This document shows, one piece after another, positions 16,234 to 52,349 of a DNA stretch of 52,507 nucleotides. A program made the position numbers and the translations under genes. The DNA is taken from IMG/VR virus record IMGVR_UViG_3300028388_005074, positions 1-52,507 of that record; one strand, given 5' to 3'. The stretch is from a virus. Lineage: Duplodnaviria; Caudoviricetes. The notes under the pieces were generated by a model, which was given only the letters and a program-made list of their open reading frames with translations, was not told the DNA's origin and ran no database searches. Every line of letters starts with the position of its first letter. Position 1 is the first letter of the stretch.

Positions 16234-18048
16234 ATGGCTACAAATATTACATCGACCCAGCTTGATTTTCAAACAATCAAAAATAAGCTAAAAACGTATT
16301 TCGCGCAACAACCCGAGTTTGCTGATTATGATTTTGAGGGGGCAGGCCTTTCAAACCTACTTGATGTGTTGGCATATAACACTCATTTTAATGGATTGAT
16401 AGCCAATTTTGCTTTAAATGAAACGTTCTTAACAACAGCTCAATTGAGATCTTCTGTTGTGGCGCATGCAGAAACGCTTGGGTATAACCCTCAATCTAAA
16501 ACTGCTGCCGTTGCATATGTAACCCTACAGTTGGTTAATACCAGCGTTGATCGATCCTCAACCGTAACGTTGCCGGCACATACTCAATTCTCTGGTTCTG
16601 TAGACGGTTTAGCATACAACTTCCAAACACTAGAACCATACACTGCAACAGATAACGGAACAGGAATTTATCAGTTTGTTACTTCCCAGGGATCTACTAG
16701 TATTCCAATCTACGAAGGAACAATCACAACTAAAAATTTCTTAGTTGGCGACACGAGCGATCGCCAAGTATTTGTCATTCCAAATGCTAATATTGACACA
16801 TCAACATTAATTGTCAACGTATATCAATCATCAACGTCATCCACTTTTGCAACTTATACCAACATCAAAAACGCAATTACTGTTAATGCGGAATCTCGCG
16901 TGTATGATATTCACGAGGCGCCGAATGGGTTTTGGGAGATTCATTTCAGTGATGGGTTTACTCTTGGTAATGCGCCGACAGTTGGTAATAAAATTGTAAT
17001 TACATATCTTTCAACAAACGGCGAGCTTGCAAACGGAGCTACAGCGTTTCAACCAGCGACAACTGTTAGCATGGATGGTCAACAGTATGCTCTTACTGCA
17101 TTAACAGTATCACCCTCTGCTGGAGGCACTGATAAAGAAAACATAGAATCGATACGAGCAAACGCACCAATTACTTTTGCGTCTCAACAGCGCTTGGTAA
17201 CACCTCTTGATTACCGGGGACAAATTTTATCGAAATTTTCTTTAGTTGAGGATTGTATTGCTTGGGGTGGGGAAGATAATATTCCTGCTTATTATGGAAA
17301 AGTGTTGGTTAGTCTAAAATTTCAGGACAATGTCGATTCTGATGGAATAGTCAATACCAAATCAAATATAGTAAATAATCTAACCAACCACTTGGCAATG
17401 ATGTCAATTGATACTATGTTTGTTGATCCACAGGTGTTATATGTCGGATGCCAAACACGATTTAATTACGACACGTCTCTTTCAAACACCCCTATTGGTG
17501 TTGTGCAGTCGCAGGTACTAAACACAATAACAGATTATTTTAATACAACATTGGGAGGGTTTGGCTCGACGTTTAGACGATCAAACCTACTAACGAGTAT
17601 TGACGATATTTCTCCTGCAATTCTAAACTCTAGAATGGATGTTGTTTTGCAAAGACGTTTTACTCCAATTTTGGCAAACACGCAATCATATAGCATTGTA
17701 TTTCCTGTTCCACTCTCGACTGCAAACGGAATTGATTATGTTGTAACCAGCAATTCGTTTACTCACGGAGGTCAGCGAGTAACAATTGCTAATGAGTTGG
17801 TAGTTGGCAGTACTAAACTGCAGCTAATTGATCCTGAGTCTAATGTAATAGTAGATAATATAGGATCGTTTAGTCCTGAAACTGGAGTTATTAACTTAAT
17901 TGGGTTTACTCCGACGTCAATTAGTGGGGCGACTGATATTAAAATAAATGCGGTTCCGGCAAACCAATCCACTGTACAACTTTCTCAAAACTTTATATTT
18001 GACTTAGACTTGTCCACGTCATTCGTGATTGGTACGAGAGAGATTTAA
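16234..18048 (+). CDS. gp6: Baseplate wedge subunit gp6
   Basis: LDFQTIK..LK, DYDFEGAGLS.LLDVLAYNTH, NE.FL.TAQLRSSVV.HA..LGY.P, QQRLVT..DY, WGGEDN. Confidence 0.96.
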   Translation: MATNITSTQLDFQTIKNKLKTYFAQQPEFADYDFEGAGLSNLLDVLAYNTHFNGLIANFALNETFLTTAQLRSSVVAHAETLGYNPQSKTAAVAYVTLQLVNTSVDRSSTVTLPAHTQFSGSVDGLAYNFQTLEPYTATDNGTGIYQFVTSQGSTSIPIYEGTITTKNFLVGDTSDRQVFVIPNANIDTSTLIVNVYQSSTSSTFATYTNIKNAITVNAESRVYDIHEAPNGFWEIHFSDGFTLGNAPTVGNKIVITYLSTNGELANGATAFQPATTVSMDGQQYALTALTVSPSAGGTDKENIESIRANAPITFASQQRLVTPLDYRGQILSKFSLVEDCIAWGGEDNIPAYYGKVLVSLKFQDNVDSDGIVNTKSNIVNNLTNHLAMMSIDTMFVDPQVLYVGCQTRFNYDTSLSNTPIGVVQSQVLNTITDYFNTTLGGFGSTFRRSNLLTSIDDISPAILNSRMDVVLQRRFTPILANTQSYSIVFPVPLSTANGIDYVVTSNSFTHGGQRVTIANELVVGSTKLQLIDPESNVIVDNIGSFSPETGVINLIGFTPTSISGATDIKINAVPANQSTVQLSQNFIFDLDLSTSFVIGTREI

Positions 18049-18051
18049 TAA

Positions 18052-49916: not shown

Positions 49917-49937
49917 ACATACAACGGAGAAACATAA

Positions 49938-52349
49938 ATGGCTCTAATTACAGATCCAGATCTACTATCGCAAGGTGCTCCTACAACAGTAGCAGACTTG
50001 GTGTTTGGAACGCCCACCGGATCAACAGTAACAATTACGTCAGCTGGCACTAGCCTTCCTGCTATGTCCGCTGGTGCTTATTTCGAAGTTCGGGGAAATG
50101 CAAACCCAAACAACAACGGCCTATACGTTGAGACGGGCGGCACGCCGAGTACCGGTTCTATTACAGCTAAAAAGCTTGCGGGCGATGGTGGAGCTGCACC
50201 GGTAGCGCAAGGTGCTGATTCAACAATTATTCTTCATCAAGAAGATTCTGCTGGCGAACAGAAGTCAGTATATTTTGACTTCTACAACAGAAAAATCTGG
50301 CTAATTAAGCAAGGTAATCTTTCTGTTGATGGTGTTACGTTGCAGGCTCTCTACTCATTTACAAAAGAAGAGTGGAAAACAGACAACACCCTGATTCCTC
50401 ACCCATTCCCATTCACAGCTATTACGCCAGAACAGTTTGAAGTTACAGACGATTGGGTATTTGAGGATTCGAGCATTAGCCCAGGTATTTTCACAACTAC
50501 TAGAAAGTTGATTCGTACTGGGGGTTGGAGAGAAGTTGATCAGTTTGATAATATCAGACAAGAGTATATCGGTGTTATCTCTCTGGGTTCATTCGAAGAC
50601 AACATTAACGACAATGCTTACTACCAGCAGGGCAACGACCCAACCGATACAACTGCGGCGACGTTCTTTACATTCGCTGGTCCGGTTAACGAAGCTGTTC
50701 GCACATATAATTATATCACCGATTCTAATGCAGGTGGTATTGCTATTACACTAAACAATACAATTACACGTACAACAGGCAGTTGGACGGCTGAAGGTTA
50801 CAAAACCGGCGGCCAGATTTCTATTGTTACGTCAGACACGGCTGGTAACGTTGGTGATTATGTTATCGATTCGGCCGGCACGTCGTCACTACGAGTTGTG
50901 GGAACAGGTTTGACAAACGATGCAGACGACGCTAACTTTACATCCGCTGTAAATGATAGAAACGTTCTAAACGTGTTCCTACGAGTTAGAGACTCGGATG
51001 TAAACGGTAAGACGTTTGCTCAGTCGACTCTCGGAGACATCGGTGTTACCGAAGTTGTGAACCAGGTGTATCGATTCCCGCTAACTAACGCGACTGACCT
51101 TAAAATTTCTGAAACTGACGTAACGATTGCTGGATCGTCTCCATATAATCAAATTGAAGTTCGTTACTTCGATCAGGCATTTACCCGTGATGTTGACGAT
51201 CCAACTGGATCTAACCCACGTGTCTTCGGTATTGTCATTGACGTTGGCACTCTATCTGGGGTCGATGGCGTTTCCAACGGCACGACGTCGTTCGCTACAG
51301 CTCAGGGTGGAATTCCAGCAACTGTATACGACGGTGGAACTCTTACAATCCACGAAGGCACAGACAAGGGTGATCACACAATTTCAACGGCTTCCGGTAC
51401 TACCGTTACGCTAAACTCTGCACTGACCGGATCAGAAACAAACCTATCGTTCACCATTCAACGTTCCACACCAGTTGTTGCAACAGCTGAAGAGATATAC
51501 GAGAAGGTTCAGTATCAACTACGTCAAGACAGCGACATTGATGCGACCGGTTCTGGTATTGTTACAGGCTCGACTGCTGACGGTCTTCTAAGATTCGTTG
51601 GTGATACTCTAGAAGCTGGCCAAGCAATTCCAACCAACCCCAATGGTGGTGGTTCTGGTGTTATTATCGAAGGGTTTGATGCAAACGACACCAACAGACT
51701 AACGTTCTACGACTCAGCCGGTCTTCCTCGTACATTCCCGTTCGTTGCTGCTGGTTCTATTGCATTCAACAACAACCTACAAAACGATGCGGATGCAAAC
51801 TTCTGGATGTTCTTCACATACACAACCAGAACAACCAACACAGATTATGCTATTACAGCAGCTTCTGGATCAAACGCAACATTTACTTCAACCGGCAATC
51901 TACCTACTCTTACGGCAGGTGATTATGTTGCTGTCAGTGGTTTTGCAAATCCGGAGAACAACGGTGTCTGGAGAGTGACGACGTTCACGTCAACATCAGA
52001 TATTGATATGTACAAAGTTGATGGTGAAAATGTTATCAACGAAGCGCCCGGCACAGCGGTTAACATTGACCAAAACCCAATTAACAGCCCAGACGCTATT
52101 ATTGTTAACAACAACGCGGGCATCCCGATTGCTGGATCGGTTTCGGCGCAGGCTTCAGTTAATTTCGACTTTGATTATGATAACAACACCCAGGGCGGAA
52201 GAACCTCTGGTACTGTCGCTGAGGTAACAATTCGAGCTATCGGATTTGATACAGCACAGTTCGTTGAAACGACTGGTCAGATTACTCGAGCTGTTGGTCT
52301 AACGTTCTCACTCGTTGCTGCTCTCGAAAGAAACTACGCGAACATTTAA
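49938..52349 (+). CDS. Virion structural protein of unknown function (803 aa)
   Basis: GGAG SD. Thr/Gly/Asp-rich beta protein: MALITDPD..., GVTLQALYSF.KEEWK, ERNY at the C-terminus. Confidence 0.8.
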   Translation: MALITDPDLLSQGAPTTVADLVFGTPTGSTVTITSAGTSLPAMSAGAYFEVRGNANPNNNGLYVETGGTPSTGSITAKKLAGDGGAAPVAQGADSTIILHQEDSAGEQKSVYFDFYNRKIWLIKQGNLSVDGVTLQALYSFTKEEWKTDNTLIPHPFPFTAITPEQFEVTDDWVFEDSSISPGIFTTTRKLIRTGGWREVDQFDNIRQEYIGVISLGSFEDNINDNAYYQQGNDPTDTTAATFFTFAGPVNEAVRTYNYITDSNAGGIAITLNNTITRTTGSWTAEGYKTGGQISIVTSDTAGNVGDYVIDSAGTSSLRVVGTGLTNDADDANFTSAVNDRNVLNVFLRVRDSDVNGKTFAQSTLGDIGVTEVVNQVYRFPLTNATDLKISETDVTIAGSSPYNQIEVRYFDQAFTRDVDDPTGSNPRVFGIVIDVGTLSGVDGVSNGTTSFATAQGGIPATVYDGGTLTIHEGTDKGDHTISTASGTTVTLNSALTGSETNLSFTIQRSTPVVATAEEIYEKVQYQLRQDSDIDATGSGIVTGSTADGLLRFVGDTLEAGQAIPTNPNGGGSGVIIEGFDANDTNRLTFYDSAGLPRTFPFVAAGSIAFNNNLQNDADANFWMFFTYTTRTTNTDYAITAASGSNATFTSTGNLPTLTAGDYVAVSGFANPENNGVWRVTTFTSTSDIDMYKVDGENVINEAPGTAVNIDQNPINSPDAIIVNNNAGIPIAGSVSAQASVNFDFDYDNNTQGGRTSGTVAEVTIRAIGFDTAQFVETTGQITRAVGLTFSLVAALERNYANI

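Follow-up and report, generated by a model that had tools for sequence, protein, structure and literature searches.

The outer virion proteins encoded by a 52.5-kb fragment of an uncultured marine T4-like myophage (IMG/VR record IMGVR_UViG_3300028388_005074; the whole stretch of 52,507 nucleotides [nt] is called the window below) carry a large excess of the tripeptides DSD (Asp-Ser-Asp) and DSA (Asp-Ser-Ala), which we write D-S-[D/A] or DS[DA]. We propose that this motif would be a surface tag maintained by selection in one clade of uncultured marine T4-like phages, mostly placed where a beta-strand leaves the fold into a predicted exposed turn. The best single explanation, which we adopt tentatively, is that the motif is a sequon for modification of its Ser residue. 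No published description of a D-S-[D/A] excess in phage structural proteins was found in a search that had supplementary files outside its range. The fragment has a CheckV completeness estimate of 32%, and counts were made on a set of 45 open reading frames (ORFs) named by PHROG and Pfam scans; the main window statistics refer to the 30 ORFs from position 16234 onward (11,827 aa).

An initial annotation of the window, made from the letters alone, had reported about 31 DSD tripeptides, distributed over exterior virion proteins. Every one of its counts was reproduced on the 45-ORF set: gp6 (1), a gp7-like protein (4), a 144-aa protein (1), gp8 (4), a 1735-aa protein (8), fibre proteins (2), a 1588-aa protein (1), a 107-aa protein (1), gp14 (3), gp15 (1), gp16 (1), gp18 (2) and an 803-aa protein (2). 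The residues that follow Asp-Ser (DS) dipeptides were also as reported, namely eight D, three A, one S and one G in the 1735-aa protein, four D, five A, two G, one N and one S in the gp7-like protein, and four D, two S and one A in gp8. The reported absence of DSD elsewhere held as well. There is none in the 15 ORFs upstream of 16234, which include gp32, the tape measure, the hub, gp48/54-like, gp2, gp4, gp53, the gp5 pieces and gp25, nor in gp17, gp19 and gp20, and the small gp33-like ORF at 804-1034 is free of it too.

The 31 DSD compare with 4.46 expected from composition or 6.05 under a dipeptide Markov model (Poisson P = 2e-16), and no other tripeptide with four or more copies in the window is as strongly enriched. 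Arranged as DDS or SDD, these residues are found just once apiece. The initial annotation had proposed a shuffled, composition-matched test, and the DSD excess survives every null of this kind: with 2000 rounds for each scheme, shuffling of whole proteins or of stretches of 10, 15 or 30 aa gave means of 3.7 to 4.4 and maxima of 11 to 13. Local D/S-rich composition is ruled out by the shuffles within 10 to 30 aa together with the permuted tripeptides. The mixture of Ser codons had been read as a sign of selection at the protein level, and this is borne out by the codon ratio, TCN:AGY being 49:21 in the motif and 671:231 for all Ser (P = 0.39), and by the frame of the 32 plus-strand 9-mers able to encode DSD, 31 of which are in frame, with none out of frame within plus-strand genes and one on the minus strand. 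A cause at the DNA level, be it GANTC arising from GAY-TCN or any other 9-mer signal, is thereby ruled out. Repeated homologous domains in the window are ruled out as well, with no aligned DS-DS pair in 21 paralogous high-scoring segment pairs. The motif is present in at least 14 non-homologous window proteins, and it appears from their sequences to be a case of convergence in unrelated contexts.

The motif is strict in its residues. In the window, D-x-D is enriched only when x is S (31 copies; the next is E, with 8), and DSA occurs 18 times versus 5.3 expected. To these we added a clade set of 80 IMG/VR loci around gp8 relatives of 41 to 56% identity. These loci total 839 DSD versus 140 expected, and every locus is enriched; after removal of duplicates, 718 remain versus 118 in 553 ORFs, and the observed-to-expected ratio exceeds 2 in 79 of 79 deduplicated loci, with a median of 6.0. 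Across the 553 unique ORFs, DSD is raised 6.1-fold and DSA 3.6-fold. After DS, only D (4.9-fold) and A (2.6- to 2.8-fold) are raised; before SD, only D is (5.6-fold, all others at about 1-fold or less), and within D-x-D only S is (4.3-fold). Near variants stay at or below expectation: DTD 0.6-fold, DTA 0.8-fold, NSD 0.4-fold, ESD 0.4-fold, DSN 0.8-fold, DSE 0.5-fold, DSG 0.9-fold, DST 0.4-fold, DS followed by V, L, I or F 0.3- to 0.6-fold, and DPD and DGD 1.1-fold. The initial annotation had defined the motif more broadly, as DS followed by D, A, S, G or N. D and A stood; DSG, DSS and DSN show a slight rise in the window and none clade-wide. Thus, the real motif is D-S-[D/A]. Readings as the immunoglobulin-domain tyrosine corner (DSGxYxC), an Asp-box, a phosphopantetheine site (DSL) or an HAD/DxD motif, as we take these motifs to be defined, do not fit the contexts; DSL occurs twice in the window versus 4.2 expected. 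Another Ser pattern, [ST]-[GAS]-S, lies barely above the shuffles in the window (53 versus 39.6 +/- 5.7).

The motif-bearing proteins of the window, with the motif-free inner module, are as follows.

3122-16229, unstranded: motif-free inner module (PHROG annotation; DS[DA] = 0), comprising the tape measure, gp26-like hub, gp48/54-like, gp2, gp4, tube cap, gp53, phrog_350 tail protein, gp5 (three ORFs) and gp25.
16234-18048, plus strand: gp6 baseplate wedge, 604 aa (phrog_219, E=9e-139); one motif, DSD368 (nt 17335-17343).
18052-20925, plus strand: gp7-like wedge protein, 957 aa (Pfam Baseplate_wedge PF23786; PHROG tail matches); nine motifs, DSD47, DSA214, DSA287, DSA386, DSD397, DSD408, DSA830, DSA878 and DSD944.
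20968-21402, plus strand: gp9/gp10-like connector N-terminal domain, 144 aa (phrog_677, phrog_958); one motif, DSD41.
21418-22734, plus strand: gp8 baseplate wedge, 438 aa (phrog_438, E=1e-79; predicted structure matching T4 gp8); five motifs, DSD17, DSD39, DSA218, DSD314 and DSD399, plus DSS170 and the clade-wide near-invariant D358-S359.
22749-27956, plus strand: VrlC-like peripheral baseplate protein, 1735 aa (Pfam DUF4815, E=4e-52; phrog_358); 11 motifs, DSD20, 257, 313, 516, 576, 602, 875 and 1595, and DSA1403, 1430 and 1462.
28180-28941, plus strand: fibre-like protein, 253 aa (weak PHROG tail-fibre matches); three motifs, DSD34, DSA69 and DSA138.
32052-32363, plus strand: fibre-like protein, 103 aa (phrog_5342 tail fibre, E=1e-5); one motif, DSD67.
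35204-39970, plus strand: repeat-containing structural protein, 1588 aa (internal repeats; no Pfam or PHROG match); one motif, DSD20.
39967-40290, plus strand: BppU_N-like protein, 107 aa (Pfam BppU_N PF10651, E=2e-8); one motif, DSD67.
41058-41951, plus strand: gp14 neck protein, 297 aa (phrog_460, E=2.5e-82); four motifs, all in the C-terminal part, DSA186, DSD217, DSD231 and DSD250.
41951-42739, plus strand: gp15 tail terminator or sheath stabiliser, 262 aa (phrog_227, E=2e-76); two motifs near the C-terminal end, DSD225 and DSA260.
42736-43092, plus strand: gp16 small terminase, 118 aa (phrog_445); one DSD at residues 3-5.
44766-46493, plus strand: gp18 tail sheath, 575 aa (tblastn to phage sheaths); four motifs, DSD89, DSD97, DSA120 and DSA149.
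49938-52349, plus strand: 803-aa protein downstream of the portal and a collagen-like gene (no PHROG match; Pfam sub-threshold only); five motifs, DSA103, DSA311, DSD352, DSD531 and DSA592.

The VrlC-like protein is homologous to genes annotated VrlC in the phages HTVC008M and P-HM2. The gp7-like protein is unusual: 70 of 70 BLAST matches with ORFs of the clade loci (about 216 to 346 aa) cover only its first ~310 residues, and its C-terminal ~650 aa, with 7 of its 13 DS sites, are peculiar to the window phage among the sequences compared. A structure model of the whole protein was dropped for the same reason.

That the motif sits on exterior virion proteins, as first claimed, is confirmed by the distribution. 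With outer and inner classes taken from PHROG names and the known arrangement of the T4 particle, and four ORFs in neither class, the 24 peripheral window proteins (10,131 aa) hold 48 DS[DA] versus 8.5 in shuffles (maximum 18 of 500), and the 14 inner ones (12 of the inner module plus gp19 and gp20; 4,988 aa) hold 0 versus 2.6. The inner proteins have 12 DS dipeptides, 10 of which precede residues other than D, A, G, S or N. A further 80 loci, gathered around the portal gene, served to count DS[DA] per protein family. The excess is found in the families of gp15 (72 versus 5.9 expected), gp14 (40 versus 8.1), gp18 (145 versus 40.9) and the major capsid protein gp23 (34 versus 12.5), and is lacking in those of gp13 (4 versus 4.1), gp16 (3 versus 3.5) and the portal (17 versus 26.9). 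The gp17, gp19, gp21, gp22, gp3-like and UvsW families have none; the zeros in gp17, gp19, gp21 and gp22 are not specific to the clade, because the same families are motif-free in T4, HTVC008M and P-HM2. The DSD of gp16 is the sole motif in a non-virion protein of the window and is probably due to chance, since the gp16 family is not enriched in relatives.

Within proteins, the motif is placed with similar selectivity. All six DS dipeptides of the window sheath protein gp18 lie within residues 63 to 153 and none in 276 to 575; residues 276 to 573 align to T4 gp18 346 to 656, which we take to be the inner conserved sheath region, the preceding part forming the protruding domains. In 61 sheath relatives, 135 of 141 sites precede the last 300 residues (25.5 expected) and 6 fall within them (13.5 expected). 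Sites are likewise concentrated in deciles 6 to 9 of gp14 (37 of 39 sites in 24 relatives), in the last 20% of gp15 (66 of 68 sites in 27 relatives) and in the third and fourth tenths of the gp23 chain. A relative available as a 110,888-bp contig, called G001 here, was analysed whole: its outer proteins hold 58 motifs versus 6.9 expected, its hub module 0 versus 2.9, and its 107 early or non-structural ORFs 12 versus 11.4. The early genes being at expectation, "avoidance" of the motif in non-virion proteins is ruled out. The distribution is the same in a second relative, G002. By their sequences, these proteins support confinement of the motif to outward-facing virion proteins and domains, apart from gp16, and it appears to mark the peripheral baseplate, the fibres, the neck proteins gp14 and gp15, the outer domains of the sheath and a capsid segment.

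The excess is equally uneven among phages. There is no DSD excess in T4 (3 versus 3.6 in 33 proteins), Cr30 (3 versus 3.7), HTVC008M (4 versus 4.9 around the sheath, 3 versus 4.0 in ten baseplate or fibre proteins) or P-HM2 (3 versus 3.8; baseplate proteins 1 versus 3.4). Two outgroup sets gave the same result, with 85 DSD versus 138 in 80 HTVC008M-like loci (more than 2-fold in 2 of 77 loci) and 125 versus 140.5 in 80 P-HM2-like loci (2 of 80). A general trait of T4-type folds or of marine phages is ruled out by these four genomes and two sets, which support restriction of the excess, as judged from predicted proteins, to one phage clade. The nearest named genome, C48C1, has a weaker, 3-fold excess in its structural block (29 versus 9.4), mostly in three proteins, and none in the rest of the genome (9 versus 9.4). 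Separately, large baseplate or fibre proteins of HTVC008M (L083, L096) have a DSFEG repeat of their own (DSF 19 versus 2.3, FEG 19 versus 1.2), which is probably a domain repeat.

Alignments show both retention and turnover of sites. In gp8, D358-S359 is near-invariant across the clade; the other sites are spread over about two dozen alignment columns, each shared by between 6 and 48 of the 61 sequences. At the clade DS sites, the gp8 proteins of the three outgroups carry different residues, except for DST (P-HM2) and NST (HTVC008M) at the near-invariant one. In the VrlC-like protein, the 13 DS positions of the window are common to 2 to 32 of 32 clade sequences, and three outgroups have DS in 1 of 39 cells at these sites. 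DS[DA] stands at the two best-conserved VrlC sites in 31 and 22 of the 32 clade sequences, and DTD or STD in the outgroups. Therefore, the fold tolerates Thr there and the clade insists on Ser.

The structural context of the motif rests on 12 sites of usable confidence in AlphaFold2 models of gp8 and VrlC. The gp8 model has a predicted local distance difference test score (pLDDT) of 86 and matches T4 gp8 (1n7z, E = 1.7e-10); that of VrlC residues 1 to 900 has a pLDDT of 77.7, and three of its sites lie in segments with pLDDT below 50. Seven of the 12 sites are at most three residues from the end of a beta-strand (gp8 218, 358 and 399; VrlC 313, 516, 576 and 602). The remainder are VrlC 257 in a hairpin loop, gp8 17 at the C-terminal end of a helix, and gp8 39, 170 and 314 in loops. 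The initial annotation had expected surface loops at non-conserved positions; most modelled sites are in predicted turns or loops, and several are conserved in the clade.

Together, the residue specificity, the convergence, the outward-facing restriction and the single clade point to a clade-specific reader that acts in trans. A modifying enzyme specific for Ser would use the Ser of the motif as its acceptor and read Asp at position -1 and Asp or Ala at +1. This enzyme would most plausibly be a phage-encoded glycosyltransferase, acting on folded or assembling late proteins in the cytoplasm, where the virions of tailed phages assemble, and the virion exterior would thereby bear sugars or another group. 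We infer that a trans-acting enzyme reads the motif, that the modification is a sugar, and that a gene cassette of relatives with a GT8 glycosyltransferase gene is involved. Of the phage-wide code for Ser modification put forward in the initial annotation, the hallmarks of a tag read in trans are thus present, but a transferase is absent from the window.

The cassette is best seen in G001, where six ORFs lie inside the fibre module, directly downstream of a fibre protein with 19 DSD. They encode a 287-aa GT8 protein (PF01501, 29.2 bits against a cut-off of 24.3) and a 220-aa glycosyltransferase of phrog_1962, and further members are ORFs of 192, 196, 232 and 312 aa. Many clade loci have cassette homologues downstream of gp8. 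Among the 80 clade loci, the GT8 gene and the 192-aa ORF each have homologues in 11 and the 196-aa ORF in 9, the flanks of most loci being too short for absence to be informative; none of the 160 loci of the outgroup sets has any. Pfam detects GT8 in three of five long clade contigs, and BLAST finds GT8 homologues in loci from all five. As a separate observation, G002 (G002:C1, L266-L270, ~48.1-64.2 kb and 75.3-84.9 kb) has ~25 kb of enzyme-like ORFs interleaved with fibre genes, an island of the pelagimyophage "host recognition cluster" type that includes several GT8-like genes and a carbamoyltransferase-like gene.

Other results weigh against Ser modification. Searches of the window with Pfam GT1, GT2 and GT8 and with phrog_1962 gave no match even at E <= 1, and PHROG and Pfam scans of its unassigned ORFs found no enzyme family. 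The fibre region is bounded by the VrlC-like gene and gp13 and is wholly present yet free of transferases, so that the enzyme would have to be a host protein or be encoded in a part of the genome that was not sampled. The closest relative (L002) has no cassette within 10 kb, and GT2 and GT4 (the SdgB type, PF00534) are absent from all five long clade contigs. The 312-aa and small glycosyltransferase genes of the cassette are found in 9 and 4 loci of the HTVC008M-like set; these loci are not enriched in the motif, which rules out that the two genes suffice. Pelagimyophages, too, commonly have GT8 genes (PMC7029224) but lack the motif, and common descent confounds any association of the motif with the GT8 cassette. 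In the 1308-aa fibre protein of G001 (L095:702-4625), 17 of the 19 DSD belong to a 25/51-aa repeat, LVAAINEL-DSD-IGxRSSLTT. Finally, 7 to 8 of the 12 modelled sites are found where a strand ends or a hairpin turns, positions that suit an Asx-type turn motif as well. The modification reading is weakened because the fragment holds no transferase gene and the sites are at turns. Co-occurrence with glycosyltransferase genes, another expectation of the initial annotation, is seen for the GT8 cassette in some clade relatives and not in the window. In the window itself, the 253-aa fibre protein has a single stretch similar to the G001 fibre repeat, ALLADSDLVTAINNI.

Known systems resemble a Ser sequon of this kind in part. 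SdgB, the nearest precedent in biochemical terms, adds O-linked N-acetylglucosamine to the minimal peptide DSD (PMC8561734, section 3.1), and SdgB and SdgA modify staphylococcal serine-aspartate repeat adhesins in this way (PMC8561734, PMC3794999). Both that system and ours, with its 31 DSD in the window, have an acidic motif in which only Ser, as acceptor there and putative acceptor here, is used and is flanked by Asp. In contrast, SdgB and SdgA act on secreted adhesins whose disordered regions contain long runs of SD units in tandem, whereas the window has isolated tripeptides at turns of folded proteins, in varied contexts and with no SDSD runs seen. The enzymes are also of the GT-B type with a DUF1975 insert, and PF00534 had no match in the window and the five incomplete clade contigs, DUF1975 not having been searched.

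The initial annotation had instead pointed to the O-glycosylation sequon of Bacteroidota. As published, this is D-(S/T) followed by A, I, L, V, M or T, extended to S, G, F or C, and D is not listed (PMC8550257, PMC8729774); it is used on exported proteins only, with Thr as freely as Ser and typically with a hydrophobic third residue (PMC8729774). The present motif shares the Asp before the putative acceptor (5.6-fold before S-D in the clade), and DSA fits the sequon. However, Thr variants are depleted in the clade (DTD, DTA), V, L, I, F and T in third position are at 0.3- to 0.6-fold, and the main third residue is D, only A fitting the rule. Bacteroidota substrates are exported from the cytoplasm, and G001 has a transfer-messenger RNA (tmRNA) of alphaproteobacterial type. 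The analogy thus fails on Thr, on hydrophobic third residues and on the unlisted D, and the exported-only substrates and the G001 tmRNA would also count against it. This gene is a permuted Alphaproteobacteria-type tmRNA, called by ARAGORN and matched by Rfam RF01849 alpha_tmRNA (114 bits), with the tag peptide ANDNFAPQAYALAA; it is accompanied by 25 tRNA genes, one called tRNA-SeC(tca) (L089:5238-5584, L091:2717-12470). By its sequence, it suggests an alphaproteobacterial host for the clade.

Phages offer two further comparisons. Freeman et al. reportedly found in 2023 that mycobacteriophage virions are glycosylated by phage-encoded glycosyltransferases, and we know of no D-S-[D/A] sequon for virion glycosylation in actinobacteriophages. 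Those phages are actinobacteriophages (siphoviruses); the likeness lies in transferase genes beside structural genes that are thought to decorate the particle, here in relatives only. In another case, two putative glycosyltransferases were taken to suggest capsid glycosylation (PMC11256854). Pelagimyophages have host recognition clusters with GT8 genes, for which modification of the host O-chain has been proposed (Zaragoza-Solas et al. 2020, PMC7029224). G001 and G002 resemble them in having GT8 genes in the fibre region; in contrast, HTVC008M-type loci have no DS[DA] excess, and the corresponding cluster of the window has fibres and no transferase. The account of these clusters, in the sections that bear on them, describes no virion-protein motif (PMC7029224).

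The main rival explanation, which we regard as possible but doubtful, is an intrinsic structural motif. D-S-[D/A] would form a turn or cap at strand exits, maybe with a seawater cation (Ca2+, Mg2+) or as surface charge, and would be a "dialect" of the clade that involves no enzyme. In type I beta-turns and Asx-turns, the turn that follows a strand begins with Asp; DxDxDG is a calcium loop. As in these, Asp follows a strand and Gly is enriched 2.2-fold after the motif; hydrophobic residues are enriched at -1, -2 and -4, and one full D-x-D-x-D-G-x-D loop, DTDSDGTD, is found at VrlC 600-607. The strand-end and hairpin positions of the modelled sites speak for it as well, as do the clade-conserved sites (gp8 D358/S359, VrlC D20/S21 and D875/S876), the integral place of the motif in the G001 fibre repeat and the lack of an enzyme gene in the window. 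Statistics of turns and caps, however, tolerate N in the first position, P, E, K or G in the middle and N, S or G in the third, and these variants are at or below expectation in the clade. The outgroups use other residues, including DTD, in the homologous turns, showing that Ser is not required by the fold, and cyanophages and pelagiphages of the same seawater are without the motif. For a cation site, it is odd that D and A are both favoured at +1 but N, E and G are not. Lastly, the hub, tube and gp5 proteins are equally beta-rich and motif-free. At the level of sequence, such strict residue chemistry resembles the sequon of an enzyme more closely than it does a preference for turns.

It is improbable that D-S-[D/A] docks a non-enzymatic partner, such as a protein that decorates or cements the particle, a chaperone of assembly or, by weak binding, a component of the host surface. 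This alternative, raised in the initial annotation, is in keeping with the restriction of the motif to the surface and to the clade, but a tripeptide spread over at least 14 proteins in differing contexts is a poor interface for one partner, and the window showed no conserved gene that might encode such a partner. An artefact or neutral by-product, whether of local composition, of a signal in the DNA, of repeats or of common ancestry inflating the counts, is hardly credible. Loci within each set of 80 are related, so that clade totals are not independent observations, and repeats account for some of the excess in certain relatives (the G001 fibre). Even so, the window alone gives the P value quoted above, local shuffles and permuted tripeptides fail to reproduce the excess, and the in-frame 9-mers, the normal Ser codon ratio and the lack of paralogous DS-DS alignments speak against it.

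The window has no nucleotide-level match that we could find, and its nearest named phages are distant: the sheath shares 49% identity with that of C48C1, 45 to 46% with those of Pelagibacter phages and 44% with that of Caulobacter phage Cr30, and gp8 identity to any of these is 34.5% at most. Its gene order starts with gp32 and, on the minus strand, the tape measure, a gp26-like hub, a tube-like protein, gp2 and gp4, followed by the tube cap, gp53, the phrog_350 tail protein, gp5 as three ORFs and gp25. Next come gp6, the 957-aa gp7-like protein, the 144-aa connector-like protein, gp8 and the 1735-aa VrlC-like protein (DUF4815), then a run of small fibre-like ORFs, the 1588-aa repeat protein and the 107-aa BppU_N-like protein. 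The end comprises gp13, gp14, gp15, gp16, gp17, gp18, gp19, gp20, a collagen-like protein and the 803-aa protein.

Several of these genes are of interest in their own right. The cell-puncturing gp5 is divided among three ORFs (333, 498 and 795 aa; 10869-15747), the middle one with an amidase-like domain (phrog_822) instead of the T4 lysozyme. Between 28180 and 34772 there are ~12 small ORFs of 103 to 377 aa with weak tail-fibre PHROG matches, which form paralogous pairs or triplets (28180/28950/32052; 29353/32373/32720; 29772/30893); by sequence, this paralogy suggests duplicated fibre-tip or adaptor cassettes. The 1588-aa protein is built of "NQTHT...DTIIVGAPAVG" repeats (QTH 14 versus 0.5 expected), and the 117-aa ORF upstream of it (34854-35207) resembles its repeat unit. 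Straight after the portal gene, where T4-like genomes usually have prohead genes, lie the collagen-like protein (48816-49916; Pfam Collagen, E=1e-31), which is the source of an excess of KGD, DKG and GDK tripeptides, and the 803-aa protein without family (49938-52349).

Whatever its cause, the motif is a sequence-only marker of outward-facing surfaces in virions that have never been seen. If it is purely structural, it represents an unusually clean, clade-wide convergent rewrite of exposed turns and a warning against motif-based prediction of glycosylation. If Ser is modified, abundant uncultured ocean phages coat their particles by means of a simple, predictable sequon, which would change the view of host recognition, particle stability, losses to grazing and adsorption, and the glycosyltransferase islands of marine myophages. 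These large islands are currently assigned to changes of the host surface (PMC7029224). A broader idea, which we put forward as unlikely but worth stating, is that marine T4-like phages have lineage-specific "surface codes", each clade placing its own Ser sequon on exposed turns of baseplate, fibres, neck, sheath and capsid to be read by the transferases of its fibre island. The code of this clade would be the Ser-only D-S-[D/A], comparable to the acceptor of staphylococcal SdgB. If so, glycosyltransferase islands like those of pelagiphages would decorate the virion rather than, or as well as, the O-antigen of the host.

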